DNA of 63,617 nucleotides, filler included, from Reclinomonas americana ATCC 50394 (lineage: Eukaryota): NCBI GenBank assembly GCA_048213135.1. It is 5 parts of 3 records of this genome, joined end to end, with 100 filler letters (N's around TTAATTAATTAA, not from the genome) between each part and the next. Parts side by side here need not be neighbours in the genome. Positions count along the whole stretch, not along the records: positions 1 to 5,255 come from PS015158.1; positions 5,356 to 30,700 come from PS015159.1; positions 30,801 to 33,779 come from PS015159.1; positions 33,880 to 62,042 come from PS015159.1; 1 more part is not named here. The stretch is one strand, 5' to 3'. The notes under the pieces are model-generated. The model made no database searches. It was not told the origin of the DNA and worked only from the letters and a program-made list of their open reading frames with translations. Within the stretch, counting starts at the first letter, position 1; each line of letters begins with the position of its first letter. The position numbers were made by a program, and so were the translations under genes. Of this stretch, positions 3,384 through 59,727 are shown piece by piece.

Positions 3384-5210
3384 TTACAGCTTGCCGCGTG
3401 CCATCAAAAAGTCGCGCATAACCTTGCGACTGCGATCGGAGGCCAGCAGGCGTGCCAGCACCGGCAACTCGGCCTTGTAGGCCGCCTCCCAGCTCGCCAG
3501 CAGTGGACCGCGGATGAGCTGCGACACGCAAACAAACAAAATTCGCAGTGAGGCGACTGCGGTGACTCACATGAGTGTGAGACGAGCAGCGGCACTGTGC
3601 CTTCTTGGTCGAGTTGACCGCATCGGCTCCGATGGTAATCAGCTTGTTGACCACGGCGTCCAGCTCGGCATTGAGGGCGTCGACGTCGGCGCACACGGTG
3701 CCGACGAGACCACCGGCGTGGGCCTGCTCAACAGACAGAGTGCGACCTGTGTGTGTGCGTGTGTGTGCGCGCACAGGTGAGAGAGACAGTCTACAAGCGA
3801 CAGTGCATTGGATACGAACCGAGCATCAGCATGTCCGTGGCCACTGCGAGCAGGAGTGTAAGGCACACGACGTCGACTGTTACACATGGCAGGAGGCACG
3901 CTCACCATTCACGCCCAGCATCTGGGTCAGAGTGGCACTCGACGCTGCCTCTGGCGCAATCGACAGCTCGGAGAACGGAGTGCGGAAGTAGGCGTTCTTG
4001 GTGGCCGCGACAATGTCGCAGAGCGGCAGCATTGTGGCGCCCACACCAATGGCGCCACCGGTGACTGTGAGATGGAATTCAGCAAGCATGACTCCTGCCT
4101 CTTCGATACACTTTTTGCAGAAACGCACCTCCGACGACCACCGGCTTCTCAAAGTGCATCTGTGCAGCTCGATGGTGAATGCCAAACAGTGGATCAGCCG
4201 TAATGTCACCCAATGGAACACACCAAATCCCACAGGAACTGGAACGCATGACCGCGCTGCACCACCGACGAGGGATCGGATCCTGTCTTTGTGAGGTGAT
4301 CCTGCACGGCAGCAAACTGGCGAGGGAGGTGATGAGATGCGGAGCGGAGACATGCTGCACGTCGCCTTGCACGCACCTCGGCAATGTCGAATCCAGCGCA
4401 AAACAGGCGGCTCTCACGGCAGCCGGTGATGACCACACACAAAATATCTGGCGACTCGCGAGCATGGCGGAGGCCGCAGCGCAGCTCGCGCATGGTGCGG
4501 TCGGTGACCGTATTCACTTTGCTGTGGGGCGTAGGAGAGATGAGTAGCAAGAGAGCGAGACGGTAACCTAAGAGAGACACACACATACCGCGGCCTGTTC
4601 AACTCCATTCTCAAGCAGGCACCAGCTGGAGATGACAGTGGGGTGAGATCATCAACAAGAAAGCCACTGTCCGCGCACACACACACCGTGCGTAATGGAC
4701 ACGCGGACTTGCTCAAACTCCGACAGCGCCAAGTCGGCCGCTCCCGAGCCGAAGAACGTGGTTGGAGAAGAAGAAGACGAGGATGAGGACGACGACGAAG
4801 AAGACGAGCTGGCAACACTCGTCGCCTTGAGTGCGGCGTCCACGTTCAGCAAGACTGAGCATCGGCAAGTCAGCGACGAGATGCCAGGCAAGTGAGGAAG
4901 AGAAAAACCGAGCAGCACACAACTGTCGGTGGCTCGCTTCTCATCCGGGTCTTTGACCTCGCGTGCACGACCGCGGAGGATCTTTTCGAAATTGGCTGCC
5001 GATGCCCAGAGCGGTTTGCCGTCCTCCTCGTCGCTGCTCGCGTGATGAGTGGCAAAGGAGGGCACTGGAGCAGGAAGCCGGTGAGAATGCACGCAACGCT
5101 CCGTGCACGGCCACCTTGCCCTTGTAGATTGGAGTCATGCGCGGCGGCTCCGTGTCGGGATCACAGCGGTACTGCGCGAATTCGGTAACACCCTTTTCGC
5201 GCATAAAGTC
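3384..5210 (-). CDS. Fusion: HSDL2-like short-chain dehydrogenase C-terminus + enoyl-CoA hydratase/isomerase (crotonase) domain; 5' end truncated by contig edge
   Basis: Nine in-frame introns join DFMREKGVTEFAQYRCDPDTEPPRM, a Ser-rich linker, then LRMELNRPRKVN, FCAGFDI, FEKPVVVGVTGGAIGVGATMLPLCDIV, FRTPFSELSIAPEAASS and KKLIR. Ends ARGKL*, a PTS1-like tripeptide. Confidence 0.8.
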
Positions 5211-5299
5211 CTGTCGCCGCCACCACATGAGATTGAAGAGCACGCAAGCAAGAGANNNNNNNNNNNNNNNNNNNNNNNNNNNNNNNNNNNNNNNNNNNN

Positions 5300-5311
5300 T
5301 TAATTAATTAA
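5300..5311. other. Artificial six-frame-stop contig linker (also at 30745-30756, 33824-33835 and 62087-62098)
   Basis: Identical TTAATTAATTAA embedded in symmetric N runs four times. Confidence 0.97.
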
Positions 5312-5355
5312 NNNNNNNNNNNNNNNNNNNNNNNNNNNNNNNNNNNNNNNNNNNN

Positions 5356-6766
5356 AGGACCAGCGATAGCAGCCGCTGAGGTGGGCGCGCCAGCCGCAGA
5401 ACGCGTCACCGTGGCCCCGCTGACATCGATGGCCACCGCCTTTCGCGGTTGATTCACATGTGCCGGAATCATGTCGTTGGTGGTGGCCACCACTGGCCGG
5501 CCGACCACCAGCACCGGATCCGCCGCGTCGTAGCTAACCACACCGGCTCCTCGCAGTGAGCCAGCTGATGCCGACTCGCGCATTGGGGGTGCACGATCAG
5601 CAGCTGGTCTCGAAACGCCGCCGAGAGAGCCCGCCGAGGCCGAGCCACGAACAAGACTCGGTGGCTGCGCAGGCGCGGCAGCCGAGGGCGGAGACGGCGT
5701 CGTTGTCTGTCGAAGAGATCCGGCAGAATTCGACGAGCGCACCAGCGGAGGTGGTTCCTCAGCCACCGCCGCCGGCGGCTCCGAAGGCGTAGTGACAATG
5801 ACGGACGAGAGCGGGTGCGCAATAATGTCGGCCGACTGCAGAGCTGCGTCCAGGTATTTTGAAACCATGGCCTTCTTGCGCGGGTCACTCGTGCGGGCGA
5901 GCATGGTACGCGGCGTCAGTGGCGTGCTCTGCACGATGAATACAAATGAGAATGCGGGGGGAGAGCGCGTGTGTGTGTGCGCATTGCGTACGTACCTCGT
6001 TTGTGGGACTACCCTGAGAATCGCCGACAGTCACGTCACCGGGGCGGCGGAAAGAGTCCTGTCGCCGTGGTGCGCGGTTGGCTCCACTCTGACGTGCACC
6101 AGTGAGCGGCGGTGGCGGTGAGGACGGAGGGAGAGAGGGGGGGATAAAAGAACGCAACTCCACCGGCAGAGGGCAATCGGCGTTCCGACGGTTGAGGTGG
6201 GCGTTCCTGTGCGCACAGCAAGTGAGAAACGAGAAGCAACACCACCCACCACCGCGTTGGCGACTGCAGCGCACCGTCTTGAACGACACGCCGATTCCGA
6301 GTCCCGCCGACGGCGAAGCACGCACGCTGGTCGACGATGACGATGTAGGCGACCCAGCAGTAGTTTGCACCAGCGGCGCGGGCACAGCAGCCGCCGCAGC
6401 AGCAACAACGGTCTCGACCGTGGCAATCTGCACCCGCGACTGCGAGCGTTGCACGGCCGGTCGAGCTGGAGCCGCAGCAATAACAGGCTGTGCTCGTGCC
6501 ACAGGTGTCGGCATGGAGGCCACCAGCGGTGGCGGCTCCGCAACAGCAACAGCAACAGCCGCAGCGGCAGCAGGCTGCACTGGTCTCGGACGACCCAACA
6601 GACGAGACTCCTGCCACCACAAAGCGAGCGTCAAGAGCGCGCAACGCAACAAGGATCGATCGCAACAACAACACCAGTACCTCACTCTCCCGCGCATCGG
6701 CAATGGCCTTTTGCAAGTCGCCCAGCTTTGCGGCCGAGTACTTGGAGATCGGCTGGGCACGGAGAC

Positions 6767-6801
<35 letters not shown>

Positions 6802-6950
6802 GTGCGTGTCAGCCTTGATCATCGCTTCTCTCTCACACACACACATACACACCACTCACCGTCTGCGTCTCATCATCGAACCACGTCACCGCTTTCGTCG
6901 GCACCTCCGTCACTTGGTTTGGCGCCGACGCGAACCGAACCTTCAGCTGA
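5356..6950 (-). CDS. Partial low-complexity Ala/Pro/Ser-rich hypothetical protein
   Basis: Exons join in frame across GT-AG introns (e.g. ETQT|PISKYSAAKL; SAGG|SGANR). Both ends run into gaps. No recognisable domain. Confidence 0.55.
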
Positions 6951-7268: not shown

Positions 7269-8902
7269 TGGAGTTCTTTGGTGATCAGGGACCAGAGACG
7301 CCAGCTCGACGTGGAGGGGCCGGCGCTCCACGACACGGAGGAGCCGGTGCTGTGCCTGTTGGGGGCACTGGAGTGGCAGGCGAGGGAGGGCATGGGGCAG
7401 CAGCTGCAGCAGCAGCTGGTGGCTCGCGGCATGTACACTACGCGGACGGAGGGGACGGAGCCGACGATGACGACGACAGTCACGAATATGCAGTTGGCGA
7501 TCATGACGATGATGAGTATGATGATGACTCGCTGGTGGAGGACAGTGGCGATGAGCTGGCGCGAGTGCCTGTGATCTCTCCGCGAGTGAGTCGAAAAAAT
7601 GCCTCACCTTTTGCTGGTTTTCCTGCTGACAAACATCTCTTTCGCTGTGCAGGATCGTGCTCGCAGCGAGTACACGGAGGCGATGAACAGGTTCAGTGCC
7701 CACTCGGCGGACAAGGAGCTCATGATTGAGATCTTGCAGATGCAGCAGCAAGAGTTGGAGGACCTAGTGCTGCTCAGCAATGTTGGCGGCTCGGCCGAGG
7801 CTCTGGCCAAGCAGTACGCCGCATCGTTGGATTTGCCCAAGACGGAGACGGTGCGATGTAGACGATTGCAGCGTGTTTCCGTGTTATCTGCTGACTTTTC
7901 AACCATTAACACAGCATCTCGGGCGTCGACCAAATTTCTGGGCTGTTGGCGAAATCAATCGCATCATGAACAACATGAAACCAACTCCACCACCACTGGT
8001 AAGCAGCTAGCGAAGGAAGGAAGTGAGACAGTTCGACACGGCGTGGACTAACTTGGTCTCCCATTGCAGAGGAAAACCCTTTTGCGCGACGACGACGACC
8101 TCGGCGACTCGCCGTTTGCTGCCACGCACCCACCACTGACGTCGGCCATCAAACAGGATCTGAAGTCGGCCACCAGTCTGATGCGGCACTCCCTGGACAC
8201 GGTGCTGGTCATGGTACGAGAGTGTGTCGCCGGTCAACTGTGCCCCCTGTAGCTTGCTGATCATTCGTTATTCTTCGTCCAGTGCATTGATCTCGCTGAT
8301 GTTTATCAGTCGCTGGGAGGTCGGAGTGCGACGGAGCAAGAGGCCAACAGTTTGATGGGCCTGGCCAATCCCGTGGACACGTTTTCGGAGTTGTGCGAAA
8401 TGGTGTGTGTACATACATGCAGCCTGGCTGTCTTGGTGCTTCCGTGATCTCAACACGCTCCCCCTCAAGGTGATGGAGACGAGTCAAGCACGTCTGCATT
8501 TGTTGCGCTCCATTCGACACATTACTCGCAAGCTGACCCGCCCGAGCGCGAATCTCACGCCCGAGGGATTCCTTCGATGTTGCGCGCTTGCGTGTCATCA
8601 TCATTCATTGTATTTTGACATGCTCACACATTCGCCGCACAGCGACACTGATCGATGTGTGGCTGCAACACACGAATGGCGAATTGAGTCGAATCGGTAT
8701 CGTGCGTGGCGAGAGACCAGATCGTCTCGATCGCATGAGTAGACATGCCGAAAAGTTCTCGTCCATGGTGGCTGGCGATGCGGCCCCTGGGCACTCGGAC
8801 CTCACCGATGAGACCTCGCAAGTTAGTGATTCGGCGTACGATAGAACGCCGTCTGTGTTTTGTCCCGAAGCCCTGGTAGCCAATGCTGTTGGATCACGGT
8901 AG
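7269..8902 (+). CDS. Partial hypothetical protein (acidic N-terminal part, helical C-terminal part)
   Basis: Series of in-frame exons with GT-AG introns (DELAR|DRARSEY; PKTET|HLGRR; PPPL|RKTLL; GFLR|STLIDV) to the TAG at 8900-8902. 5' end lies in a gap. Confidence 0.55.
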
Positions 8903-8982
8903 TGTAGTGTACATTGTTTGCATGTGTGTGATGTGTTTACTTTTTCTTGCTGGTTGTGTCAGCTCTTTTCGGTGCGATAACT

Positions 8983-11629: not shown

Positions 11630-14600
11630 TTAGTGGACCAGGATCGGCGTCCGGCTCGTCTCAGAGCCCTCGTCCGACGGGTTTACGACAAAGGTCCACT
11701 CGCCTTGCACGGCGGCGCGCTCGCCAGTCGAGTCGACAATGGTGAGATCGTGTGCCTGGATGCCGAAGGAGTACGACTGCGATTGGCCCGGCTGCAGGAA
11801 CACCTTGCCGAAGCCGATCAGCGACTTCAGCGGAGCACCGTTGACACCTGGGCTTGGAGGAACCAAGAAACCGAGGACCGAGACAGCGCCGGCCACCTTG
11901 CCAGTGTTGGTGACCGTCACGGAGACGGTGGCGACGGGCGAAAACTCTGGACTGGACGGCAGCGGCGGCAGGTAGTGGCCGCGGTCATGCGCTTTGCGCG
12001 CGTAGTCCGCCACCGTCTCGTAGGACACCTGCAGGCCACCTCGTCGTGCCGCCGCGCTCGTGTACGTAAAGGTGGTGTAGGAGAGGCCAAAGCCGAACGC
12101 GTACACTGGCGCGCCAGTGTAGAAGCGGTACGTGCGACCGGGATTGTTCGTACCTGGACGCATGTTCATCTGCAGGGAGGGTGGCAACAGCGTGAGAAGA
12201 GGGAAGGAGACTGAGATAATGACATCTAACGCAACATCCAACATGGATACTTGTGAGGTGTACGCGGCCGGGTACATGGTGTACGGCATCCTGCCGGAGG
12301 GATTGACCTGCGCAGGGGGGATGGTAAGGGCAAGGGAACAAAACACAAAACTAGTGCATCCAAACACGGGGACGCACCGTGCCAAACAAAATGTCAGCCA
12401 GAGCAGTGCCACCACTCTGCACACCACACCGCAATCATTAGGTCACCAGCCGCAGAGTCACTCGCTTCCCATTCCCGCACACACACACACACACACCTGT
12501 CCGGGATAGCCGACCCACACAATCGCCGACACCTTGCTGGAGGTCTTGGCGACGGTGAGATCCACAGAACCGCCGGCCATCACCACCACAATGACAGGTC
12601 CGCGAGACGACGACGCGACGGCGGTGATCAGGTCGTTTTGCACTGCACGAGGGAAGAAGAGCATAGTGATCACCTAGTACCGTGCTGAAGCAACATTCTG
12701 CGAGGCCACTCACCACCAGGAAGGTCGATCGACTCACGGTCTGTGCGCAAGCAGGGGAGGTGACTGAGAATTATAGAATATCTTGCAGAATCAGGATCTT
12801 CGTCTCACAAACCGTTGCCTTCCGACTCCTGCGACTGATCGAGGCCAACAACAATGACGGTGGCATCGGCCACCGAGGCTGCGGTCTGTGCGCTCGAAAA
12901 GCCACCCTTGTCGGAGCCGCTGATCTTGCAGCCGCGGGTGAACGTGGAGCGTGGGGCGTACGCACTGATACCGGCAAAAGGAGACACGAGGAACGGCGCG
13001 ACACCTTCGTAATTGCCTTGCATTGTCTGCACGCACACGATGAGCACACCAGCCAACATCACGACGAACAAGCTCTGAGCCAACGCAACAGTGGTGGCAT
13101 CGCCATTCGGTCCGATCACGGCCACGCTTTGAATACTGCGAGTCGACAGCGGCAGCGTGCCGGCATCATTCCTCAGCAGCACGATACCCTCGCGTGCTGC
13201 ATCCAGGGCGAGGGCACGGTGTGCCTTGGTGTCGATGACGGTGGTGTTGTACTTGAGGTACGGTTGTGTGGGCACGGGGTCGAACATGCCGAGGCTGGCG
13301 AAATAGACNNNNNNNNNNNNNNNNNNNNAACGATGAGAGTGCGTGCGTGACAAGGTAACACACCGGAACTGAACGCGGAACAGGTTCGCCACATGCACAT
13401 CGATCTCAGCCGTGGAGACGGCACCGTCCGTGATGGCCGGCATGAGGTATTTGTTGAAGAAGCCACCGCATTCGATCTGTCGTTGTCGATTGAGTCACAT
13501 ACGTTCTGGGAACAGGCTCGCACACACTGCACGCAACATCCATGCCGGCATACAGCGTGACCTGCAGGGAAGAGTCAAGAAATAGAAGAGAAATCAGGAG
13601 AAGCGAGTGCGGGTGCAAGTGGAGTGCCTCGCGTCACACCTTGATGGTCTCATCCGTGGTCTTCGTGAACTTGTGCGCATACTGCACATCGTCCACAGCA
13701 CCGCAATCGCTGGTGATGTAGCCGTCGAAGCCCCACGTGTTGCGCGCCAGATCCGTCATGATGCGGCCGTTGGCGCACGAAGGAATGCCGTTGACGGCAT
13801 TGTAGGAGCACATGAGTGAGGAGACGCGACCACGCTGGATGCAGCCTTGGAAGGCGGGCAGGTAGGTGTCGGCCTGCGTGAGTAGACAAATGGTCAATGG
13901 CCCGTTGTTGAGTGCTGACGACTCGCTGTGCCTCACCTCATCTTGCGCCGTGACAATGGCGTTGAAGTGGAAGCGGTCAGTGCCCTTCCAGTTCTCGAGA
14001 GAGTAGGCGTAGTAGTGCTTGCAGCAGGCGCTGGCCTTCAAGTGGCGCGGGTCCTCGCCTGTGTGGAACACAGAGGGATGAGGTCGCACACGAGTGCGGG
14101 CACAGTGTGTGTGACTGACTACACACCCTCCTGCAGTCCCGGCACAAAGCTGGCAGCATAGGCAGCATTCATGAACGGGTCCTCGCCGGGCGTCTCCTGC
14201 CCGCGACCCCATCGCGGATCGCGAATGATGTTGATGTTGGGTGTCTGTGCACACCACCACTGCTCAGCTGCAGCATGGACCACCACCGTCGAAAGTGCAC
14301 ACAAACCCAAAACGTGAGACCCGCATGACCGGCGTTGCTAAAGGCGCGCGCCTCGGTGGAGACCACCTGCCCGATGGCGTTGAAGAGGGTGGAGTTGAAG
14401 GAGGCGGCGGTCAGAATCACTTGCGGGAACGAGGTGGCGTTGGTGGTGGGGGCGTTGAAGGAGACGCCGGGGGAGCTGAAAGGGGGGAGGAGGGGGAATG
14501 GAGGGGGAGAGAAGGGAGAGAGGAGGGAGAGTGAGAGGGCGGGAGAGACAAAGGAGAAGGGTGGCATGAGAGCACCGGCAAGTCTTGCACAAAGCAAACA

Positions 14601-20850: not shown

Positions 20851-21471
20851 CTGCAAGCGTACTTTGATCAAGTCTATGGGATTCGTCAGAAAGGCGGCCA
20901 TGGCGCCTGCTGCAGCGCCACAAGCTGCGCGTACGCGTGTTAGCGACAGTGCAGAACCCGCTTCCTCGTGTTGAGCGGAAACGCACCGAAAAATACATAA
21001 TGCGGCAACGCGGCCACCTCCTCCACCCGATAGTGCCGCATGAAGCCGACCTTGAGCTGCTCGTAAAACATCAAGTAGAGACCGCTGTAGGGCCCAAACG
21101 TCAACAGCGTCGCGCCGAGTCCCTTGTAGAAGCCGCGAATGCCAGCCGTGTCCCAGATCTTGCCGGCTATGCGCGTCACTGGCACGTACCGCTGCGTGCT
21201 GATCGCCTGCTGTCGCTGCTTCAAAACATCCACTGGCACCCATCTGGTGCGAGGGGATCGCGGAATGAGGGGTGGTGGCACGAGACGAGACAGACAAAAA
21301 GAGAGACAGGCGAGCGCAACATGCACGAGCTGCCGAGCTCTGCGGCAAAGCCGGCACAAAAGTCGGCAATCAGTGGTCGCTCCCGCAGTGCAGGCAGGCG
21401 ATGGAGGTAGCTCTTGGTGACTTCGTACGTGGAAAAGTAAAGCATGCCCGCGGGCACAGAGCCGGTCATTG
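20851..21471 (-). CDS. Mitochondrial carrier, continuation (repeats 1-3) on an inverted contig
   Basis: AMTGSVPAGMLYFSTYE, WVPVDVLKQRQQ, GIRGFYKGLGATL and FLTNPIDLIKVRLQ. Splices in phase 1 onto the + strand exon ending at 19826. Confidence 0.9.
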
Positions 21472-30639: not shown

Positions 30640-30834
30640 CTGCACGCAGAGGAGAGGGGGGGGGGAGTGAGTTGAATAGACGCCCAGGGGGAAGACTGAG
30701 NNNNNNNNNNNNNNNNNNNNNNNNNNNNNNNNNNNNNNNNNNNNTTAATTAATTAANNNNNNNNNNNNNNNNNNNNNNNNNNNNNNNNNNNNNNNNNNNN
30801 AACTGTACTGTATCTCAAACATTACATCAATGGT

Positions 30835-46100: not shown

Positions 46101-48987
46101 CACTATCACGGTGCCATGAACCCGATCGAGCGTCGCCAGGTGCAACGCGACTGGACCACGGATCGCGTTCGTGTCATGGTGGCCACCGTGGCCTTTGGGA
46201 TGGGTATCGACAAGGCCGACGTGCGCTTCGTGTTCCATCACGCCGTACCGAAAAGCCTCGAGGGCTACTACCAGGAGGCCGGGCGTGCCGGTCGTGACGG
46301 CCAGAAGAGTCTGTGCGTGCTGTTCTGGGCGTTTGGCGATCGGGTACGTGCAGTTGTCTTGCGTGTTTCTGCTGTGTGCATGTGCATGCTCATTGCCCCC
46401 ACCCATCACTATCCCAGCAACGCCAAATGAGCATGATCAAGCGCGACGATGGTCCGCGTGAGAATGTGCCGGCCAAACTCGACGCCCTGCGCAAAATGTG
46501 CCTCTACGCACAGAACCAGCTCGATTGTCGACGTGTCCTGCAATTGCAGCACTTTGGCGAAAAGTTCGACCCGCAGCTGTGCCACGGAACGTGTGACAAT
46601 TGTCGGCGAAGCATGCCGTTTGTGGAGGAGGACGTGACGTCGGCCGTGCGAGACTTGCTCAGCCTGCTGCAGGAGCACTTGTCTCGCAACGACCAGTGCA
46701 CACTACTGCAGCTGCTGGACTCGTTCTCCGGCGTGCGCAAGGCCTCCAAGCGCTTCGCGTACCCCACGTTTCCGGGATATGCGTCCTCGAAAAAGTACGC
46801 CTATCTCAAGAACAAGGACAAGGTGCGCGCGTTTGGCGAGTTCCTCATTCTCGAGGGCATTTTGGAGGAGAACTACACGGAGGGCCAGTATTCCATGCTG
46901 GTGTACGTGGTGGTGCGTTGCAGTGTGCTGTTTGTTGGGAGAAGGGACGTTAACATGCAGAGCTGAAAAAACATTGTTCTGTGTGTCATGCAGCGCAATG
47001 AGCAAGTGTGCTCAGAGATCATGAGCGGCCGGCGCAAGGTCCTGTTCAAAATCATTGGCGAGGTCAGTGGCGATGCATGTGTGTCAATTACCCTTTGCGT
47101 CTAATCACCGCGATTGGCAGGGAAAGCGCAAGCCGGCAGCCAAGGAAGGAGGTACGCGCTTTCTGTATTCATGGTACGATCGTGGCAGCGCGTCTCACAT
47201 CGTCTCATGCACGCAGGCGACGAGGCCGCAGAGGGTGCAGAGTCGGCCAAGAACAAGAAGACCGCCGCTGCTGGTGCCGCCGGCGCAGCTGCTCGGCCAG
47301 CACGAACGCCACCCAAGCGCCGACTGCCCAAGGGCATTGCCGCCGACGACGATGGCGACGAAGGAGGAGGAGGTATCGACACCGTCGACCTCACCAAGGA
47401 TCGCGATGCATCGTCTGCGGCCGTTCGTCGTGGTGGTGGTGGTGGTGGTGACGACGACGAATCCGATGGCGAGCTGCTGTGGGAGCCGCCGTCAAAGGCG
47501 GCGACGCAGAGTCGATTGAGACGCAAGCTCTCGTCCTCTGGTGCGCTGACGACGACGCCAACGGCGAAGCCGTCCAACAGTGCGTCGGCGAAACCGAGTC
47601 GGCCGGCCGCCACCGCCGCCGCCGCCGCCGCAGCAGCGCCACTCTCCGACGACTCGGACGACGTGGTGCTGCCTCTCATCGGTGACTCGTCGGAGGACGA
47701 GGTGAGCGAGGGCGAAAAGGAGGTCGCCGAGAAGGTGGACGATGACTCGGAGCACAGCGACGAGGAAGATTTTGTCAGCAGTGCGCGCAAGAAGGCGCAA
47801 ATGGCCGCTGCTGCAAGCGCGGCAGCTGCCGCCGCGGCCGGTTTNNNNNNNNNNNNNNNNNNNNNNNNNNNNNNNNNNNNNNNNNNNNNNNNNNNNNNNN
47901 NNNNNNNNNNNNNNNNNNNNNNNNNNNNNNNNNNNNNNNNNNNNNNNNNNNNNNNNNNNNNNNNNNNNNNNNNNNNNNNNNNNNNNNNNNNNNNNNNNNN
48001 NNNNNNNNNNNNNNNNNNNNNNNNNNNNNNNACGACGAACTCACTGGCTGATGGCACGCACAGGTATTGGTCGTCTTCGCGAGTGTATCCCGTTCGTGAA
48101 CTACTTCCGACGAAAGATGCACGAGGCCGATCCCAAAAAGTTCCCTGCACCGACACCCGAAGACGCCATCACGGACGAGGAGCAGATTCGGGAGCTGGAG
48201 GAGGAGGCCCGTCTGAAGGCCCCCGAGCCACTCTCCCTTGCCGAGCTGGTCAGGAAAGCAGCGCATCCGAACGGGTCACCACCTGCCATGTTGCGTGTTT
48301 TTTTTGTTTGTGAAGTCGATGCCTTCCTCCGCAGCTCACAACTGTCTCTTGCCGCTACGTTTGCAGAGGCGGCAGAGGCTCGCCCGGTGCCATGTTGCGT
48401 GTGTGTGTGTTTTTTTTTATGAAGCCGATTCCCCCACAGCTGACAATTGCCTCTTGTCACCACCTTGCAGGGGCAGCAGAGGCTCGCCCGGTGCCGATGT
48501 GACCGTGTACTCGATGAACTCGTCGACAGCGTCCTCGTCGAGTCTCATCACACCGGCGCAGACGGGGAAGCGCACACGCTCGCCCGACTTTTTCGCCGAT
48601 TTTGACTCGCCAGACTCGGAGGAGCTTGGTGTGTCGTCGCACACGATGCAACAAACAAATCTCCCGCTGTTGCTCACTGCGTTACACACAGAGAAAGTGC
48701 TGGAGAAGCTGGAGAGTCCCGAAAACCCGCCGCTGTTGAAACGGCGCAAGACGGACTCTGACGAGAAAAAGAAGCGGCTGCAGCAGCGACGTCTGGGAGG
48801 CAGTGACGATGACGAAGACGAGGACGGTGATGATGATGATGATGACGACGACGACGACGATTACAGCAAGCCGCCGAAGCGGTTGCCGTCAACAGCAGTA
48901 TCGTCGACACGACCAACGGGGCCGGGAGACGGTGGATCCGTTCGACCCGGGAATCCGTTCGTGCCGGCCTCGGCGCTGCGCAAGTAA
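43189..48987 (+). CDS. BLM: RecQ DNA helicase, BLM/Sgs1 type (helicase + RQC; HRDC probably partly in the gap)
   Basis: Starts MRDNLQEQLAWL. Motifs FRPNQLEAINA, MPTGGGKSLCYQLP, VIDEAHCISSWGHDFRPDY, MALTATAT, SGIVYC, ATVAFGMGIDKADVRFV, YYQEAGRAGRDG and Zn-binding CRRVLQLQHFGE..C..CDNC. Confidence 0.93.
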
Positions 48988-50113: not shown

Positions 50114-51140
50114 ATGCAGCGCGGGTGGTGCGAGTACGGCGACCGCGCGTGTCGCTGGGAGGAGCTACTGGAGAGAAGAGTCGTGCCGGGTGCTGGCCTC
50201 ACTGTTGCGCTCCTCTCTCTATCTCTCTCTCTCTCTCCTTCAGTCACTCATGACACTCTCTCAGAGCATTCTCGACAGCGTGGCCGCCGACGGTTCCTTC
50301 TGCACGGCCGAGTTCCTTCGTTGCGCGACCGCCAACGCAGTGCCTTGCCGCATTCTCTCCACCGAGCACACGTGGCTGCACCAGAGCACAGTCGCGCGCA
50401 AGATTGGTGGCGGACTGCGCTTGGGCGCCGGCGCTGCTGCTCCCCTCGCCTTTGTCGATGTGCTGGAGGAGACTGGTGCGAGTGGAGGCACGCTGGCACT
50501 CAAGTCGCCACTGACAGTGGAGGTCGGAGAGGCTGTGACGGCGCCTCCTCCTGTGACGCACTATCCGCTCGCGGAGGGGGGAGGAGGCGGTGCGCGTGGA
50601 CTGGTGGAGCTCATGGTGTCGCCTGTGGCGGGTGTCACTCCGCAGCTGCTCATTGTGGACTGTTTGAACACGCTGGCGCTGTTTTGGGGAGCGACAGAGG
50701 CGCTGCAGGTGGTGCACTACCTGCGCGTGTTTGCAGAGGAGGTGAGAGCGCGGGGAAGGAGACGGTGCGGTGCGGTGGGAGTGCTTGCGGCTCACATTTT
50801 GGAGCTCGTGCAGCACGGTGCTCGTCTGATTGTTCGGGCTCACGCGGATGAGGACGACGCGGAGGCGAAGCTGCTGGCGGCGTCGCTGAGACACTGGAGT
50901 CGCACAGTGCTCACAGTGCACGGACTGGAGACTGGGATCAGCAAGGACGTGCACGGACAGGTGCGAAACAACAAGCAAACAAGGAACATTCGTCTCCCAA
51001 TGCTCACTGCTCCCCCCCCCGTGCGCCAGATCACCATCGAAGAAGAGGACGAGGATCGGCGCAGTGCGTCGCTCACTCTGCACTTCAAGTGCCTCGAGCA
51101 TGGAGTGAGCTGCTTCCCACCAGGCACACTCTCAAGTTGA
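50114..51140 (+). CDS. ELP6: Elongator complex subunit 6
   Basis: GLTSILDSVAADGSF, LLIVDCLNTL, VHGLETGISKDVHGQITI and LHFKCLEHGVSCFPPG match recalled ELP6 motifs (DGSF; GLxTGxxxDVHGQL). Confidence 0.8.
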
Positions 51141-51194
51141 CATTGAATGAAAGAAGTCCTGTTGTCGCACATTCTCTTCTTTCAGCGTCCTTCG

Positions 51195-54100
51195 ATGAGC
51201 AGCGAGGTTGTGCGCTGGTGTCGCAGTCTGCTCACTCGTGCCAACACTGCCTCGCGCAGTGAGATAAGTTCCGTGTCACTCGCTCTCTTACACATCACAC
51301 AGTGATACTCATGCTCTCCGAGAACAGACGGATGGATAACCGACTTGCGCAAGCGGTTTGCACGCGCAGAGACCAGCTCGGTGCAGCACGCCATTCTCGA
51401 CACTCTGTGGAAACTCTCCCCGAATGCACGCGATGTGCTGACAAGTGCGTCGCACTCTCTCACTTGCACTTTCACATGCATGCATCAATCAGAATGACAC
51501 TGCACCTCGCACCAGTGCTCATTGAGAACGCGGGTGGCATTCATCGACGACTGTTGGGCGACATTGTGCGACACATCTTCACAATGCCGGATAGTGGGCG
51601 TGCCGATGTGCATGTGCTCTTGCGCGATCTGTGGACGTCGCGGCCGGAGATTCGAGTTGACTTGTTGCAGGCGTGCTTTGCGGTTCTCCACGGCATTCGT
51701 GATGGTGTGCTCCGTGTTTAGAATAGTGCAGGTGCTCCTTCTCCTGCTCCTGCTGCTAACGTGACGCCCGTCGTGCAGAGGCGCATGCGCAGAGTGTGCT
51801 GGCGCTGGCGAGTGAGGTGTTTCTGCCGTGCATGGTGTTTGTCGGCGAGAATGTGTCGGCCGACGCGGCCACTGCCAGTGCAACGGCAGTGGTGCGCGGC
51901 GAGTTCTGGGCGCAAGCACGAGAGTTGATGTTGCGCGCAGACTCCTCGCCGGCAGCGCTGACGGCGCTGAGTCGTCTCCTGCAACGCGCATTCTCGCCGT
52001 TTGTGTCAGTGCGTCGTGCCGTGTCCGTACCGTTGTGTTCTTTCCCCTTGTTGCCTGACGCGCGGCACTCTTCTGCGTAGTCGATCCGCTTGTCGCCCGT
52101 GTTGCGTGGGGAGTGGCCGACGGTGGCAGCAGAGAGCCTGCATGATGCGGCGTTCCGCGCCCTGTCGCACAGTCGGCACGCTTCGCCGCTGCTTGTGCAA
52201 GCTGTGCTGCAGCGCATCGTGACGGCGGTGCGAGTTGCGGAGAACGGAGCGGCACGCGAGGCAGTGGAGGTGGAGAACCACGTCCACCACTTGCGAGAGG
52301 TTTGGCACTCCGTTGCCTGAAGGTGGATTCGAGCGCACTGATGTCGCTCTGTGTGTAGCTCTTGGCGCACAGCACGACATGGCGCACCTGCCACGTCACG
52401 TTGTGTGCTCTGCTCGTGCACCTGCCGTACCTGGTGTTGCTCAGTGGCGGGGAGGACTCGGATCTGTGGCCGCCACTGCTTGACTTGTATGGCGTTGTGT
52501 TGCGGCATGCGGTGGACGTGCGCTCGGCCGTGGCGACTGCAGCTTTGGCCTGTGGCGAGCTGGCGCTGGTGTATGCGGCGTCGGCAGCGCAGCAGCTGTT
52601 GAGCGCAGACACGGCGGCGGCGGTGACCACGCGATGTGCGGAGATGTTGCAGATTGCCCGAAAGTCAATTGCAGCCGAGGAGTCCTCTGTCGACGGCGAG
52701 CAGTCGTCTCCGCCGTCTGTCGATGGCGACTTGCTTCCCGTGTTGCAGCCGCTGACGCATCTAGTTGTGTACACGCTGGCCCCGCTGTTTTCCCCGACTG
52801 CGGAGGAGGCGGTGGTGACCGACACTGTCGCCACGCTGTTGCGTGCGTTGGTGACACACGAGACGACCAATTCTGGCGTTCAGCGACAGGTTTGCGCCTC
52901 TGTTGAACTGCCCGCCATGCGCCACATCCTGCTAACACATGTGTTTTATGTGCAGGGCAAGATTGCCGAGCGCGGCCTCATTCTGAGTGCACTCACCAGC
53001 CACCCACGCAATGCACGAGTTCGACTGCTGGCAGCACGGGCGTTGGTTGACTTTCACCAGCAGTGGGTGGCGCAGGTACATGTCGAAAGCAGACAGTGGT
53101 TTTTATTGGGTGACGCTGACAGTGCGTGCAATCAATGTCGCTGTAGCACGTACGCGGACAATGGATCGACTGGATGATGCCGCTGCTCGTCTCGCTGTTG
53201 TCGTTTATCAGCAGCGACACAGCAAGCACCACGGCCGAGGATGCGCAGAGTGTGCTTGAGCTGGTGTATGCGTTGCCGAGTATGCACCCGAGCAACTTCC
53301 ACGTGCAGGCGCGCGAGACGGAGAAGCACACAGTGTTCGTTTGCGCTGCTGCCGCACGACCTGCCAGTGTTGTCGTGTGAGGCTGAACAGTACTGCATGA
53401 CGTGTGTACAGGGCTGCCGTGTTGCGCGTCATCAATGCATTGTTGAAGGCCGAGGGAATGCGGGCCGTCGGACTGCGTGCGTACTGCCGACTGGCCATTG
53501 CAAATCCGCCTTATCTCGGTCGGTTGAACAGCGCAGTGACCAGCGCGTGGGATGGTTCGACTCTTGTTGCCTAATCTCTCTCACTTTCTGCTTTCTTACT
53601 CATCGCACGACTCACATTCTCAACAGAGGCCGGAAGCAGCAACGAAGACCTGCGTGTGGCCGTCTGCATGTGCATGACCGATGTGGTGCGCAGTCCCGCC
53701 GTGTCGGACTCTGCCTCGCAGGACTACGTGCCGTTGCTGTCGCGTGTTGTTTCCTGGGCCTGCGCGGCAGTGACGGACGACGCCGACAGCATTGCGGAGC
53801 GTGGTGTGTAACTCTGTGGACGGCGATCGCGACTCACTTGTTGCATGCATCTCACTGTCTCGCTGTCGCACAGGAGCGGTGTGGGATGGCGCCGAGTCGT
53901 CGCTGCAATCCAGTGAGCGCATTTTGCGTGCGGCACTCAACTGCTTCCGCGCGTTCCTCGAGGTGGGCGTGCTCGATTATGCCTCGGCGTGGGCCGCCAT
54001 GCGAGGGCCTGTGCTGGAGTTGCGCGCGCGCACACGCACATCGCATTCTCTTTTTGGGTTCTCGCTGCTCACTCCGCCACACGTTTCAGAGTGTGTACAT

Positions 54101-57100
54101 TCAGCTCGCCAGTGGCACAGGCAACATGCGCGGTGTTGGCGCTGGCACTGTTGACTGAGGGCGCTGACGACGACGATGATGGCGATGATGACGATATGGG
54201 TCCTGGACGGAACAAGCCACTGAAGCACCCGGGCGATGGTGATGACGGCGACGAGGATGACGAGGAGCAAGAGGAGGGGGCAAAGAGAGGCGGCGACGGT
54301 GACGAGGACGAGGAGGAACCCGTGTCACACATTTTCGAGGCGATCGACTCTGCATGGCAAATCGCCGGCGACCCGTCACCTGTGTTGCGTGCGCACGAGT
54401 GAGTGCACATATTGCGTGCCTTGTCAGTACTTACCGGGAGTGCGTATGCAGAGTGCGGCAGACGGCCTACAGCACCCTTCTGGCCTTTGGTGTGGATCGC
54501 CTGATTGCACGCCAGCGGGCCACCATGCGCCTCGACGATGAGCCACCGGCTGTCGACCCAGACGCAGCGCCGCCGACAGCATCTGCACCGCGCGGCGGTG
54601 GCAGTGGCAGTGGTAGTGCTGCTACCAATGCTGAGGATGCTGAAAAGCAGGCACAGGAAGCCTGTTGCGTTGAGGGAGGAGGAGTGCTTTGGGGGGCCGG
54701 ATGCTTGTTGCTCACTGGTGATGCACAGTGGACATTTTCGAGGAGAAGCGACGCAATCAAGTGGCGTATGCAGCCTTGTGTACCGAACAGCTGAAGCCGA
54801 TTTTTGATTTCGAGGTGTGTGCAAGTGCTGTTGTTGGTATACTACCATCATTCACATGTCGCGTTGTGACGTATGGCTGTCATGCAGTCGGAGCGCATGG
54901 ATGCTGGCGACGGCAGCATGTCGTGCTTTGAGCAGACGCAGCGTCTGCTTGCAGAGTTTTTGTCGCAGGAGCTCGCCGACATGTGGCAATCCAAGGATCA
55001 CGGAACACTGCGCAGCGGCGGTGCGCAGGCGTCGCGTGGAGGCCGGCGAAAAGGTGTCGAGAGCAGCAAAGGTCAGCAGCCGCTGGACGCGGTGGTGCGC
55101 GCACTGTCGGCGGCAGAGGATGCTGTGGACGTGTACATGCAGCCGCAAAGTGGTGGTGCATCGAGTGGTGGACTTGCGGTACTCTTTGCGTACGCCGCCG
55201 AGTTTCGCGCAAACATGGCCGAGGCAAATGCGGCCTCGATCACGGTATGTGTGTTTTTGTTGTGGGTTCTGGTGCAATGGGAATGCAGAGCTCAGTCTGT
55301 GGCAGTGGAACACAAGCAGCCTGGACCACTTGTTCGCGACTCTGCTGGCCGACGTCGCTGTGGCATCGGTGGCGCTTTCCGACTGGACGCTTCAGCTGTA
55401 CGCCGCTCCGGCGTGGAATACCTTTGTTCGTGAGGTACGTGTAGACGTTCTTTCGATCTCTTCCTTTGTTGTTGCATCGTAACCATGGTCGCGCAGTACT
55501 GTCGCCTGCGAGTGCGCGTGCACATGCGTGACGGCGGACTGGGTGAGTCGGCAGCGTGGATTGATGCGGCGGCGGCGGTGCATCGCATTGGCGTGGACGT
55601 GCACGCAAGTGGGGAGATGAATGCCTCGAATGGACTGCTGGCAGTCGGCAGCTTGTTCCTGGCTGTGCCGGCCATGAGCGGCGTCGACTTGCGCTCGGTG
55701 CGACGCTCGCTCATGGCACTGGCGCCGCAAGTGACCGGCGAAGCATCGGTGCACTCACTGTGCTTGGCGCTGGCCTTGGCGGCTGATACGGGCGATGCGC
55801 GTGAGGTATTGCAGTCCTCGCAGTTATTCGCAGCGGTCCGCGCTGACAGTGGTGGTGGCAGGTGGAAGACATTGTGCACGTGTTGGAGAGCCGCATGGAG
55901 CAAGCGTTTGGAGCGGGTCTCGGACTCGGCCTGATTGCGCACGCCGTGGCCAGCGGCCGCAGTGGTTTGTGTGCCTGCTTGCGAGTGCGACACACGGCGA
56001 TGAACTCAATTCACACGTGTGTGCTCCGTCAGCCAACTTTGGTGCTCAACTCGGTGACCAGCGAGCGCGTGCTGCGCTGGCGACAGACATTTTCGAGAGG
56101 CTGCAGAGGCACGCCAGCCAGCTGCGCGGTTCAGGTGCGATGCACACCTTTGTGGTGTAACGACCCTTGCCCGCCTCACGTCCTCGTGTGTGTTGGGTAC
56201 AGCTCTGCAAGCTCGCGACCACCTGGCCTCCTCACTCGCGCCACTCGGAGCACACTTGGGCACCGCATTTGCCAGCTTGGCGCAGCCAGCAGCCAAGCAA
56301 GAAGCTCTTCTGAAAGTACTGACGCAGGCGGCGGTATCGGTTTCCGAGTCACGTGCGTGCTCCTCCTGCCCGGCTGGCTGAGCCTTCTTCGTGCTGACTC
56401 TTTTTTTGCTATGTGCAGTGAATGGACCGCCCATGTCGGCGCAGATGGTTGATGCCGCGGCCGCAGTGCTGCTATCCACCGCCCTTGTGCTGTACAATAT
56501 GCACAGCAAGGCAGCCTCGGCCGTGAAGCAGACTGGACCATTGGCCAAGCTGTTTCGTATGGAGTGAGACACTCATTTGCCATTTCGTAGTCGCGTCTCA
56601 CAATGATGTTTCAGGCTGTGGCTGGTGTGCACGCGTGACGGATGGACCGTGGATACGTCGCCGGTACTGCAGGCTGCGCTGGTCGGATCGGCGTTGGTCT
56701 TGCGCGTTGGCTTGCGTGATCGGTACATGGTTGTGTGTTGCGTCGTGATTTGTTGGCAGCTGCGATTGACTGGTTTCTTTGCTGTAGCATCCTGCTGGAG
56801 GGTGTGCCGACAGCGGCTCAGTTTGTCGACCATGTGATGCACCTGGCCTCTACCACTCCACTTGCCAAGATTCGACTGGGCTCTCTGCTGGCGTGCGTCA
56901 CCCATTTCTACATGACTGTCCTGTTGTCTCCAACTCACCCACCGTCGACGTTGCAGATGCCTCACTGTGTGCGATGGCGAGCTGTTGTCACCCGAGTTCC
57001 ACTTGGATCACGTGACGCCTCCACCACCGTCAGTGGCACGCAGCGAGGCCACACTGTGGCAGAACCGGCAGTTTGGCACGGTGCGGCTGCACTTTTCATG

Positions 57101-59727
57101 ATGCGACCCTTCTGCCCTGCTCTCACAAATTGCCACCTGCAGTTGCTGGAGAGAGCAGTCGCCTGCGTCGGTCGCGCCATTCAGCAGGATCCGCGGAGTG
57201 CCGGCGTTGCGGCCACGCTGCTCGCACTGCTGGTTGCTTCCGATCGCCTGCGAACAGCAACAGCCAATCGCACCGGCGGCTCCAATTCGTCTCCCACCAA
57301 GATTGTGCTACACGTTGCGTCGCGCGCACGTCTCTCATGGAGCGTTCTCTTCCATTCACTCATGTTAATCGGCTCTTGCACAGGACTTCCCCGAAGCGTG
57401 CCTGGCGCAGCACTTGTTGCCACTGATTTTGCAACCCATCAGTGCCGCCGAGGAGAGTTCATGCCGAGGTAAGCTGATTCGTTCATCCAGTGCGGGTATG
57501 CTTGCACTTGATTGACTTACGGCGAAATTCACTTGATGACAGCTGCGGTCGCCGCTGCTGTCAGCGTGGTCTCGCTCCTGCCTCGAGAGATGCCGTTTGC
57601 GCTGAGTGGAATCACAGTTCCCGGCATCATGGCTCCCCTACTGTCGCGACGCGCAGTCGCCAGCCACGAGGATACGCTGGCGAGTGCGGCACTCGCCGCG
57701 TGTGTGGGTATCGCCTGTGCAGAGTTGCGGGCCCGTGAGACCGACGCCTGCACGTTTGAGGTGCTGCAGGCCATGGTGTTTGAGCAGCTGCCGAGTGTGG
57801 CGCGTGTGCGCTTGCTCGAGGCACTGCCGAGCATCCTCTCGGTGTTGTCACCCGATGTCATTCGACACCACGTGCCCTCCCTGCTGGTGCTTCCGTTTAC
57901 GGCCGAGTTGCGTGTCTTCATGTTTCTTTCCAATGCCCGGCAGTGTGGGTGCGGACAACTGACCTGCCGTCACGCAGCACAAATGAGGCTGTTCGCGAAG
58001 CCGATGTGGCGGCCTTGGAGAAACTGGTGGCCATGCTCACTGGCCGTCAGCTCAATGTCGCACTCTCGCAGAGCATTGGCGGCAGTCGTGTGGCACCACT
58101 CGACGCATCGGTGGCTGCTGCCGTGCGCGACGACATTGGCAACGCAGCTGTGCAAGCGCTGCTGGCTTTTGACACTGTGCAGCAGCCGCAGTCTGTGCGA
58201 GGTGCGATGCGTATGAATTCCACTTTGTGTGTATTGTGTGTGGGAGTGCTGACGGTGCGCGTGTGCACAGAGCTGGAGGCGAGCACGGCGACCAATCACC
58301 ACTTTTACCGCGTCAGTTCGGTGGTGGCCCGACTCAAGCCGACATTTATCACGCATCAGGAAGGAGGTTGCGCTTGCTGTGTCGTCTGCAGCATGTTTCA
58401 CGCGTCTGCCCGCTAAAATCGATGCGCGCGCACAGACGATGCGTCGGGATCGGAGCACGCCTTTGCTGCCGGGTGCTGTGCAGTCATGGCTGGTGAATGT
58501 GAATTCGGCGCACTGCGCGAGCTGCGAGGCGCACTCTTCCAGTTGCGCCACTCGTGCTCCGCATCCTTGTTTCACGCATCGTCGACTGACACGGCCTGAC
58601 TCCGCCGCAGGGGCCACTTTGAGAAGCTGGACGTGTTTTCGCGCGTTCATCTGTTTGCGTCGGCGTTTTGCAACGCCGCGGCCGACGCGAGCACCAAGTG
58701 GAAGTTGAGTCGTGCCGGCGTCAGTGTGTCGTTTGTGGGTGTGTTGCGTGCTGACGATGCTGTCTAAAGGCTGCTGAACGAGATGTTGGACGTGGTGCCG
58801 ATGCAACCGTCGCTGTGGCCGCAAGCAGCCGAGGTGACCTTGGCTTGTGTGGCGCTCGGCTCATCACCGCTTCTGTACTGGAGAATGATGGCGTCGGAGG
58901 TTGGAGTCAGCAGTCGGTGGCACTGGTCACTGGAACGAGGTGAGCTCGTCACGAGTCTTTGAACGATCTCTTGTGCTGTCCACTTACTGCTCTCCACCCA
59001 ATCCCTCGTGTAGCACGTCGCTCACTGATGGTGGTTGTGAATGAGACCGCCCGCACGCCGGTGCTGACGCGAAACCGGCGCCCCGATCCAGCATCCGTCT
59101 CCACCTCCATGCATGCGCTGTTCGGGAGGATGGTGGCGCTGTTTGACAGATGCAGCGCAGCAGAGGGTACGCCGAATGCGTTGCTGATTGAATGGCTTGG
59201 AAGGGCTTGTTTCTCACCACAAGGAAGCGCAGACCGCACTCCCTCGCAGGTGCACACGTGGTACGCGGCTGCGGCGGAGTTGCTGGCCGCTTCGCGGCAC
59301 GTGCAGGACCCACAGATGCAAGAAGGTGCGATTGGAGAGCGTGCTTTGACGCCCTGCTGCTCGCTCGTTGATGACACATTGTGTGTGTGCACAGGTGGTG
59401 TGGGTGTTGACGATGAGCTAGAGGTGGCGCTGGATCAGTACATGACAGAGGACGAAAGGAGGGCCGAAGCACGCCGTTTGCGCAACCAACGAGGTACGTA
59501 AGCGGGAGTGATTTGTGCTGAACTGCGGTACGTCGCTCACTGTTGGTGACAGAACTCGTGAATCGAATGGGTCTCTCCGACATTGTGTCGCCGACAGATG
59601 TTGCGTTTTTTCCCCTTGAAGCATGGGCGCATCGCACGGCAACGCTCATCACGGTGCAACACAGAGTCCACTGGAGCGCGCCATTCAGGGCTGGAAGACG
59701 CTGCTGTATCAGTCGTGTACTGACTAA
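51195..59727 (+). CDS. FOCAD: Focadhesin/RST1-like large ARM-repeat protein (about 30 exons)
   Basis: Continuous in-frame splicing over 8.5 kb. LVYALPSM, AVGLRAYCRLA, LRVAVCMCMTDVVR..DYVPLLSRV and ALNCFRAFLEVGVLDYASAWAAM resemble the recalled DUF3730 region. Ends AIQGWKTLLYQSCTD*. Confidence 0.65.

Follow-up and report, generated by a model that had tools for sequence, protein, structure and literature searches.

A second class of 5' splice sites, GTTGCG(T/C), in a stretch of the Reclinomonas americana genome, and how it may be recognised

How an intron can be marked at its 5' end by a fixed start word from which both the exon-end G and the G at intron position +5 are missing, and which the textbook arm of the U1 small nuclear RNA (snRNA) should not bind, is the question raised by a stretch of DNA from Reclinomonas americana ATCC 50394 (GenBank assembly GCA_048213135.1), analysed here as one window of 63,617 bases. 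Few features of gene expression in eukaryotes are as strongly conserved as the U1 5' arm and the GURAGU logic. An earlier reading made from the sequence alone had listed introns of this window that start with GTTGCGT or GTTGCGC, and had taken them for ordinary donors moved by one base. The present analysis confirms GTTGCGY as a genuine and tightly specified second class of GT-AG donors, standing beside G/GU(G/U/A)NG(U/A) (the slash marks the exon-intron border throughout).

Eukaryotic genes lie densely in the window and are interrupted by many short introns; the sequence has 4,385 masked N in 17 runs and a GC content of ~0.58 outside the masks. Its recognisable genes are GH3 beta-xylosidase-like, AMP deaminase, RecQ/BLM helicase, G-patch, mitochondrial carrier, ELP6, TPR and MOB-like, and a Pfam search run on 95 stop-free open reading frame references gave few matches. 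The best database relatives of the window proteins are 55-80% identical and spread over many eukaryotic groups, several of the top AMP deaminase matches being amoebozoan proteins.

Junctions were placed by a protein-to-DNA spliced aligner accepting any GT or GC donor (GC penalised) and any AG, without a sequence model, and using 24-30 homologs per gene. This donor-blind alignment fixed 24 introns in four genes, seven of them starting with GTTGCGT (29%) and one with GCTGCGT (GC-AG). All seven GTTGCGT sites were in the earlier list and are exact by 23-24 of 24 homologs (Table 1), and the anchor motifs on which that list leaned, AGMD/IECG, RGLN/TF and FPN/VPIMALTAT, were reproduced by the alignment; its fourth anchor, GWKE/GEGLG, fits what we take to be the spacing of the G-patch motif. 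The GH3 gene has 12 introns with 23-24/24 votes each, of which the three class introns all have T at -1 and the nine ordinary ones, starting with GTTTGT (two), GTGTG (four), GTGAG (two) and GTGCGT (one), all have G there. In AMP deaminase seven introns were fixed, with 20-24 of 24 votes, and in RecQ/BLM a second GC-AG intron of the window is probable, with 15/24 votes. Taken over all fixed introns, G at -1 occurs in 0/8 of the class against 15/16 of the others (Fisher 1.2e-5), and in 13/14 of the others when only donors with >=80% of the votes are kept, in agreement with the association with non-G that had been claimed. The eight homology-fixed class sites are exclusively of the T-ending form; for the remaining sites the evidence consists of signals, strand and frame. 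T at +3 together with G at -1 is also seen at ordinary donors, at 14306 (-, tgg/GTTTGTGT) and 12812 (-, acg/GTTTGTGA) with 24/24 votes each, and at 23414 (+, cag/GTTGCTCA).

These placements bear on the suspicion that the class is an artefact, the true donors being nearby ordinary GTs such as the GT at +6 in GTTGCGTG. An ab initio gene finder, which is donor-blind, reads through in-frame introns and shifts donors, and was therefore kept only as a donor-blind check and is unfit for intron counts, often picked a same-frame GT 6-15 nt away; 15/78 of its predicted introns have GTTGCG <=18 nt upstream or <=24 nt downstream, and G at +8 in 16/36 sites creates a GTG 5 nt downstream. Against this, homologs fix seven sites to the base, 12/36 sites are GTTGCGC and have no second GT in the heptamer, and the association with 3' signals described below is carried by the heptamer itself, its neighbours being at background. 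An artefact is barely credible, and the misplaced-junction reading was rejected.

All 36 listed positions begin with GTTGCGT (24) or GTTGCGC (12) on their strand, the exon base at -1 being T in 19, A in 11, C in 5 and G in one, the latter at 58367 as had been noted. Of the 36 sites, 35 have a YTNAY-like branch and a YAG 55-79 nt downstream; 35246, which has no recognisable 3' end, is doubtful as an intron. The median length of the class introns is 65 nt, 33/35 end in CAG, and the joined frame over 75+75 nt flanking each candidate intron is open for 33/35, the exceptions being 59600 and 29677; at the latter the exon after the intron is just 38 nt, and the site is nonetheless fixed by homology. 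The consensus is A(U/A)/GUUGCG(U/C), with A at -2 in 19/36 (p 2.6e-6 against the context of all GT sites), T or A at -1 in 30/36 (T enriched at p 0.005) and G at -1 depleted (1/36 against 21% at all GT sites, p 0.002). In addition, C is found at -3 in 13/36 and AT precedes the donor in 14/36, while +8 shows a weak G/T preference (A in 2/36) and nothing is conserved beyond it. The description of a class lacking both the -1 G and the +5 G therefore holds, with the heptamer at 36/36 sites and no -1 G among the eight fixed introns.

At their 3' ends the class introns carry the branch words CTCAC (13), CTCAT (8) and CTGAC (7 of 35), at 8-36 nt from the end, and in length, branch word and CAG end no difference from the ordinary introns is visible. 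They behave as U2-type introns: a degenerate YTNAY branch stands at a variable distance before a YAG, they start with GT or GC and end with AG, and their removal restores a continuous homologous protein (8 introns, 23-24/24 homologs). A U12-type assignment was rejected, the word being GTTGCGY at 36/36 and not [AG]TATCYTT, with a CTSAY branch at a variable 8-36 nt.

Seven further copies of GTTGCG[TC] were absent from the list, at 16494 (-), 22553 (+), 22980 (+), 25362 (-), 34462 (-), 52838 (+) and 54384 (+). All except 54384 have a branch motif and YAG downstream, and 54384 is a 68-nt intron according to the gene finder; these copies may be additional class introns.

Table 1. Introns and donors of the window, the GTTGCGY class first. 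Lower-case letters are exon; "signals" means motif, branch and YAG; votes are homologs placing the junction.
Feature	Position	Strand	Length (nt)	Donor	Evidence and remarks
Intron	5034..5097	-	64	agc/GTTGCGTG	Motif, CTCAT branch, CAG, open frame; coding score 9.7
Intron	6089..6158	-	70	gga/GTTGCGTT	Motif, CTCAC, CAG, open frame; coding score -3.2 (weak)
Intron	8579..8642	+	64	gat/GTTGCGCG	Signals
GH3 intron	12170..12235	-	66	gat/GTTGCGTT	Phase 0; both ends placed by 24/24 homologs
GH3 intron	13027..13089	-	63	act/GTTGCGTT	Phase 0; 24/24 homologs
GH3 intron, AGMD/IECG	13477..13537	-	61	gat/GTTGCGTG	Phase 0; 23/24 homologs
Intron	17310..17373	-	64	gca/GTTGCGTG	Signals
Intron	17915..17985	-	71	cgc/GTTGCGTG	Signals; coding score -1.8 (weak)
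Intron	18015..18079	-	65	cat/GTTGCGTC	Signals; coding score -7.0 (weak)
Intron	19075..19139	-	65	tct/GTTGCGTT	Signals; TAG end
Mitochondrial-carrier intron	21244..21320	-	77	cat/GTTGCGCT	Pfam Mito_carr match begins at downstream exon
Intron	27833..27898	+	66	cga/GTTGCGCG	Signals; coding score 12.0
AMP deaminase intron, RGLN/TF	29506..29579	-	74	tca/GTTGCGTT	GTTGCGT; phase 1; 24/24 homologs
AMP deaminase intron	29618..29677	-	60	cat/GTTGCGTC	GTTGCGT; phase 2; 24/24 homologs
AMP deaminase GC-AG intron	29953..30041	-	89	ata/GCTGCGTA	GCTGCGT, the heptamer with C at +2; 24/24 homologs; absent from the earlier list
AMP deaminase intron	30187..30252	-	66	aat/GTTGCGTC	GTTGCGT; phase 0; 24/24 homologs
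G-patch intron	31735..31797	-	63	gga/GTTGCGTG	Signals; coding score 11.0
G-patch intron, GWKE/GEGLG	31874..31930	-	57	aga/GTTGCGCT	Signals
Doubtful intron	35238..35246	-		GTTGCGTGA	Motif; no recognisable 3' end
Intron	36898..36961	+	64	gca/GTTGCGTG	Signals; TAG end
TPR intron	37882..37936	+	55	caa/GTTGCGCG	Signals; coding score 10.1
Intron	40993..41059	+	67	gat/GTTGCGCG	Signals
TPR intron	41800..41857	+	58	aac/GTTGCGCA	Signals; also chosen by the donor-blind gene finder
TPR intron	42193..42258	+	66	gtt/GTTGCGTA	Signals
RecQ/BLM intron	44146..44203	+	58	gat/GTTGCGTG	Signals; N-terminal part unconserved, hence no homology fix
RecQ/BLM intron	45021..45099	+	79	cat/GTTGCGCT	Signals; no homology fix
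RecQ/BLM intron, FPN/VPIMALTAT	45687..45750	+	64	aat/GTTGCGTC	GTTGCGT; phase 0; 24/24 homologs
Intron	48290..48366	+	77	cat/GTTGCGTG	Copy 1 of duplicated exon-intron unit of ~104 nt
Intron	48394..48470	+	77	cat/GTTGCGTG	Copy 2 of duplicated ~104-nt unit
Intron near start of ELP6-like gene	50204..50264	+	61	act/GTTGCGCT	Signals
Intron in large repeat-protein gene	54019..54089	+	71	gga/GTTGCGCG	Signals
Intron	54664..54728	+	65	cct/GTTGCGTT	Signals
Intron	57314..57383	+	70	cac/GTTGCGTC	Signals
Intron	57907..57977	+	71	cga/GTTGCGTG	Signals
Intron	58367..58435	+	69	gag/GTTGCGCT	Sole listed site with -1 G
Intron	58542..58610	+	69	cca/GTTGCGCC	Signals
Candidate intron	59600..59664	+	65	gat/GTTGCGTT	Joined frame closed over 75+75 nt
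MOB-like ordinary donor	23414	+		cag/GTTGCTCA	26/30 votes
MOB-like ordinary donor	23732	+		aag/GTGAGG	25/30 votes for donor
AMP deaminase intron	start 29246	-		tac/GTATAT	23/24 votes for donor
AMP deaminase intron	start 29819	-		cag/GTGAGA	20/24 votes
AMP deaminase intron	start 30396	-		gag/GTACTA	22/24 votes
RecQ/BLM GC-AG intron (probable)	45895..45968	+	74	aag/GCTTGTC	15/24 votes; others pick GT at 45931
RecQ/BLM intron	start 46344	+		cgg/GTACGT	10/24 votes, remainder on nearby GTs

The word is far more common than chance would give: the two strands together hold 76 copies of GTTGCG[TC], compared with 30.7 +/- 5.7 (maximum 48) when 100 second-order Markov sequences were simulated, and in the block of plus-strand genes at 36.5-60 kb the heptamer stands 30 times on the plus and 3 times on the minus strand (p 1.4e-6). 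An acceptor set of 269 signals was defined as CT[CGA]A[CT] followed by the first AG, this being YAG, and the GT hexamers 48-100 nt upstream were ranked. GTTGCG comes first by far, with 38/93 copies before such signals against 11.8 expected (p 9e-12), followed by GTAAGT (6/8), and GTGCGT (14/82) and GTACGT (6/28) are barely over expectation. Set against random GT sites, GTTGCG[CT] likewise stands out, a branch and YAG being found at 45-100 nt in 43/74 (58%), with a background of 18.4% over heptamers in general and 19.7% over GT sites in general.

This enrichment is confined to the exact word. One-letter neighbours are at background, including GTTGCG[AG] (3/17), GTTGCA (9/53), GTTGCC (10/36), GTTGCT (4/47) and GTTGGC (9/50), the +3 neighbours GTAGCGY (1/7), GTCGCGY (11/56) and GTGGCGY (11/51), and the first-letter variants [ACT]TTGCGY (3/16 to 15/44); all seven letters therefore matter, including the C at +5 and the T at +3. 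Also, the GC form GCTGCG[CT] shows no enrichment before 3' signals in the window (6/65). The heptamer alone is insufficient to make an intron, since 24/24 homologs continue across the copy at 45179 (+), ggc/GTTGCGCT, which lies in the conserved exon of the RecQ helicase and is followed by no YAG in range.

The number of true class sites is estimated at ~42 from the excess over background, taking 7/8 as the sensitivity for the class and 10/16 as that for the other fixed introns; this is ~21% of the window introns with a wide error. Among homology-fixed introns the share is 7/24 (29%), or 8/24 with the GC-AG variant. The earlier figure of about a fifth is borne out, and the best reading is a share of about 20-33% of introns. 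As a control, 30 metagenome AMP deaminase loci (<=79% identical, ~122 kb) have GTTGCG[CT] 12 times in sense and 10 times in antisense, with a 3' signal at 3 of the 12 sense copies, so that the frequency of the class is no general eukaryotic property; none of the 30 loci comes from a close relative that would serve a conservation test. The class is also far more frequent than the bulged or shifted sites of human, extracts of Tan et al. 2016 (PMC4856993) putting validated noncanonical registers at 1.5% of 201,541 human sites.

An inherited origin of the start word, through decayed mobile (introner-like) introns that carried GTTGCGY and inserted next to A/T, would account for the heptamer being common to these introns, for their restricted lengths (55-79 nt) and for the AT before 14/36 donors, and has a precedent in Physarum, where a transposon origin with a TA target is proposed for U12-type introns in the available part of bioRxiv 10.1101/2020.10.12.336362. 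It is nevertheless very improbable: blastn among the 35 interiors gives four short matches of 12-37 nt, clearest in CT repeats, no target-site duplication pattern is seen by eye at the intron ends, the other introns are the same in length and branch signals, and decay would erode T+3 and C+5 unless these were functional. Introner-like copies were rejected for this one window, the interiors being unrelated to one another, with 48290/48394 as an exception by eye. These two introns belong to a tandem exon-plus-intron unit of ~104 nt at 48280-48480 (+), which Tandem Repeats Finder (TRF) at score 80 did not report.

Pairing was modelled with ViennaRNA duplexfold, allowing bulges and internal loops. 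On the textbook ACUUAC arm (AUACUUACCUG) the class gives -0.7 +/- 1.3 kcal/mol (n 36; -0.06 for the eight fixed sites), compared with -7.05 for the other fixed donors (n 16) and -2.5 +/- 2.1 for 1,500 random GT sites, so that in these models the class is clearly anti-matched to the textbook arm. An ACGUAC arm would give -5.0 for the class, -7.9 for the other fixed donors and -4.0 +/- 2.2 for random GT sites, and a hypothetical ACGCAC arm -7.0, -8.8 and -5.25 +/- 2.8, respectively. Pairing to the U6 ACAGAGA box is predicted to be poor for both (-2.25 for the class and -2.65 for other donors). When -1 is changed to G, the duplexes become 3.5-3.6 kcal/mol more stable on arms with CC at positions 8-9.

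The sequence-only interpretation was that the class is the ordinary hexamer with one extra T, read by U1 in a shifted register; its abundant donor class stands, and the register as written is not supported. In its fuller form, the textbook arm would pair out of its canonical register, by bulging U at +2/+3 or by a one-base shift, with U1C, LUC7 or TIA-1-like proteins stabilising the duplex. Right-aligned, xGUUGCGY and xGGUGCGY are one letter apart, the A at -2 (19/36) and the C at -3 (13/36) suit pairing with U10 and G11 whether canonical or bulged, and such registers are proven in human cells according to the extracts of PMC4856993. However, the predicted duplex is ~0 kcal/mol at best in any register, below random GT sites; in the bulged register G at +4 and the invariant C at +5 would face two pseudouridines, and the bulged helix is absent from the duplexfold output unless -1 is changed to G. 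The proposed source hexamer, GTGCGT, is found in just 1/16 fixed ordinary donors, and the shifted forms that would correspond to the commoner GTGTG and GTGAG do not rise over background (GTTGTG 12/42 and GTTGAG 4/39 with a 3' signal). Moreover, G at -1 is avoided though worth ~3.6 kcal/mol, and the human share of such sites is a small fraction of the 20-30% seen here. This explanation is judged rather unlikely.

A second U1-like snRNA, with a 5' arm of about 5'-RCGCAAC(A/U)U-3' fully complementary to the nine-letter motif, would divide the introns between two recognisers. It would agree with all seven intron letters being required, with the Y at +7, where a G in the arm can pair C and U, and with the enrichment of U/A at -1 and A at -2. 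In the models such a perfect-complement arm separates the donors cleanly (-12.6 +/- 1.1 for the class, -4.9 for other fixed donors and -5.2 +/- 2.5 kcal/mol for random GT), and it is the sole one on which a G at -1 gives no gain (-11.7). Physarum is reported to hold a standard and a modified U1 in the portion of bioRxiv 10.1101/2022.06.08.495308 that was available. However, the Rfam search shows no such RNA in the window, at least four changes from a conserved arm are needed, strict pairing would leave less of a mixture at -1 than the T 19, A 11 and C 5 seen, and a literature search for motif words only brought up no report of separate U1 arms for two intron classes. A second U1-like snRNA is unlikely on present evidence; if true, at least a quarter of major-type introns would be committed via a separate snRNA, an undescribed split of the first step of the major spliceosome.

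Recognition of UGUUGCGY at the exon-intron border by an RNA-binding protein that recruits or replaces U1 is consistent with a strict short motif with a looser exon flank, as is typical of protein sites, and with the poor pairing to the standard U1 and to the U6 box. It is held to be improbable: no candidate protein or known domain of such specificity was identified, and base pairing would be the more natural source of a GC-AG variant and of a free choice between T and C at +7.

Here it is proposed, with a probability of about one half, that GTTGCGY marks a second class of introns whose definition lies on the intron side and whose reader is probably a U1 arm other than the textbook one, co-evolved or variant. 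This follows the alternative that the sequence-only reading had offered, a variant U1/U6 snRNA or a U1-associated factor. These would be ordinary short spliceosomal GT-AG introns (55-79 nt, with a CTCAC, CTGAC or CTCAT branch and a CAG end) in which the snRNA arm pairs UGCGY (+3 to +7) at a distance from the cleavage site that exceeds the one in G/GUGCGY by one nucleotide, which would make the exon-end G dispensable. The textbook ACUUAC arm would be unable to form this pairing because C +5 and G +4 face two pseudouridines, and the host U1 arm is for this reason taken to be non-textbook; it may carry a G opposite the C, as the Mastigamoeba ACGUAC does, or there may be an additional U1 variant, and either a bulge or a one-base shift would accommodate the extra U. 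The U6, U5 and catalysis steps would be those of the major spliceosome, and the 3' ends, which are the same as in other introns in branch, length and CAG, are consistent with the same machinery. A GC-AG variant is present too, as is common for U2-type sites whose other positions are strong.

Several points weigh against this proposal. Every count comes from a single 63.6-kb window with 4385 masked bases, the duplex models ignore pseudouridine and the U1 proteins, and in the window Rfam gives no snRNA, with 0 matches at the gathering score and, at E up to 5, four weak miRNA/snoRNA-like ones. An ACGUAC arm puts the class only ~0.5 standard deviations better than random GT sites, and non-G followed by GTGCGY, which would be expected to bind such an arm, is no donor class in the window, being at background (25/151). 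The avoidance of G at -1 is unexplained by any register on the modelled arms with CC at 8-9, and would fit either an anti-correlation of exon-side and intron-side signals or a dedicated arm pairing A-U at -2 and -1. Finally, the available text of bioRxiv 10.1101/2022.06.08.495308 has Mamiellales and Thecamonas keeping a standard U1 despite GYGCGY or +4C donors, so that odd donors need not imply a changed U1 and the inference is not forced.

If the junctions hold genome-wide, the class is a natural experiment on how cleavage is positioned when pairing occurs one base further away, it tests the co-evolution of snRNA arm and donor in an intron-rich genome, and it bears on why exon-side and intron-side signals exclude each other. 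For annotation, gene finders with one donor model will misplace about a quarter of the junctions in the genome; the donor-blind model moved many junctions by 6-15 nt.

Other features of the window were noted in passing. The AMP deaminase gene lies at 29103-30835 (-), and its frame apparently begins near 30627, ~200 nt past the G-patch stop, with N at 30701-30800; the first half of the catalytic domain is unseen, and one exon matches Pfam profile positions 412-438 of 630. This could be due to a truncated gene, masked exons or an assembly join. In the same gene, at 29189-29246 (-) after the conserved STDD, homologs pick tac/GTATATCT, a 58-nt intron, with extra residues, and the PLMFHF exon has CAC, instead of AG, directly before it. 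A 117-nt tandem repeat at 36144-36374 (+), within a wider 36040-36500, has 2.0 copies at 87% (TRF) in an apparently non-coding gap, with about four looser copies by eye, the units at 36252 and 36369 bearing GTTGCGTGAT on the minus strand. The segments 5256-5355, 30701-30800, 33780-33879 and 62043-62142 are filler at part joins, consisting of 44 N, 12 readable bases and 44 N.

Among the matches listed in a text search of the literature, there was no paper on GTTGCG or GUUGCG donors. The class can be compared with several related systems. Human atypical 5' splice sites in shifted or bulged U1 registers were reportedly treated by Roca and Krainer (2009) and Roca et al. (2012). The class resembles them in the extra U after GU, the G at +6 rather than +5 and the offset of one base. 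Unlike the class, the human sites complement ACUUAC after the shift and mostly keep the -1 G, and those with a bulge at +2/+3 number 54-68 in the extracts of Tan et al. 2016 (PMC4856993); the class makes up 20-33% of introns, has a single fixed heptamer and avoids the -1 G.

A second comparison is with the exon-side AG//GUNNN and intron-side NN//GURAG consensus sequences, which rarely co-occur according to the part of PMC11732430 that was available. The same anti-correlation is found here in the split at -1, which is almost absolute in the window and a tendency in that system. Unlike NN//GURAG, the class word is GUUGCGY, and its match to U6 ACAGA is no better than that of the other class.

The donors of the Mamiellales, on which Irimia and Roy (2008) is said to be a further paper, share with the class the GCG(T/C) core and the T/C choice at the last letter. 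In the accessible text of bioRxiv 10.1101/2022.06.08.495308, Ostreococcus and Micromonas have GYGCGY donors, the word standing directly after GU and being served by a standard U1, whereas the class has an extra U before the word and has lost the -1 G. The same text pairs a U1 arm ACAAAC with GUUUGU(U) donors in Entamoeba and an arm ACGUAC with GUGCGC donors in Mastigamoeba, and that portion of it contains none of the words GUUG, GTTG, bulge or shifted. Similarly to these Archamoebae, the window has donors with U at +3 or a GCG core, and GUGCGY and GUUUGU donors also occur in it; GTTTGT, an ordinary donor word of the GH3 gene, is the Entamoeba consensus word as given there. The Archamoebae, as far as that source goes, have one consensus and one changed arm per genome, with no mention of an additional donor class longer by one base.

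Lastly, U12-type introns likewise form a second class in which the 5' word is long and rigid and the exon-side G is lacking, and they can be abundant, numbering 20,899 in Physarum with the 5' word [AG]TATCYTT in the available part of bioRxiv 10.1101/2020.10.12.336362. Unlike them, the class has neither this word nor an TCCTTAAC or TTTGA branch at a fixed 9-12 nt, and the likeness is an analogy only; the class is filed as a noncanonical 5' splice-site class within major-type introns.

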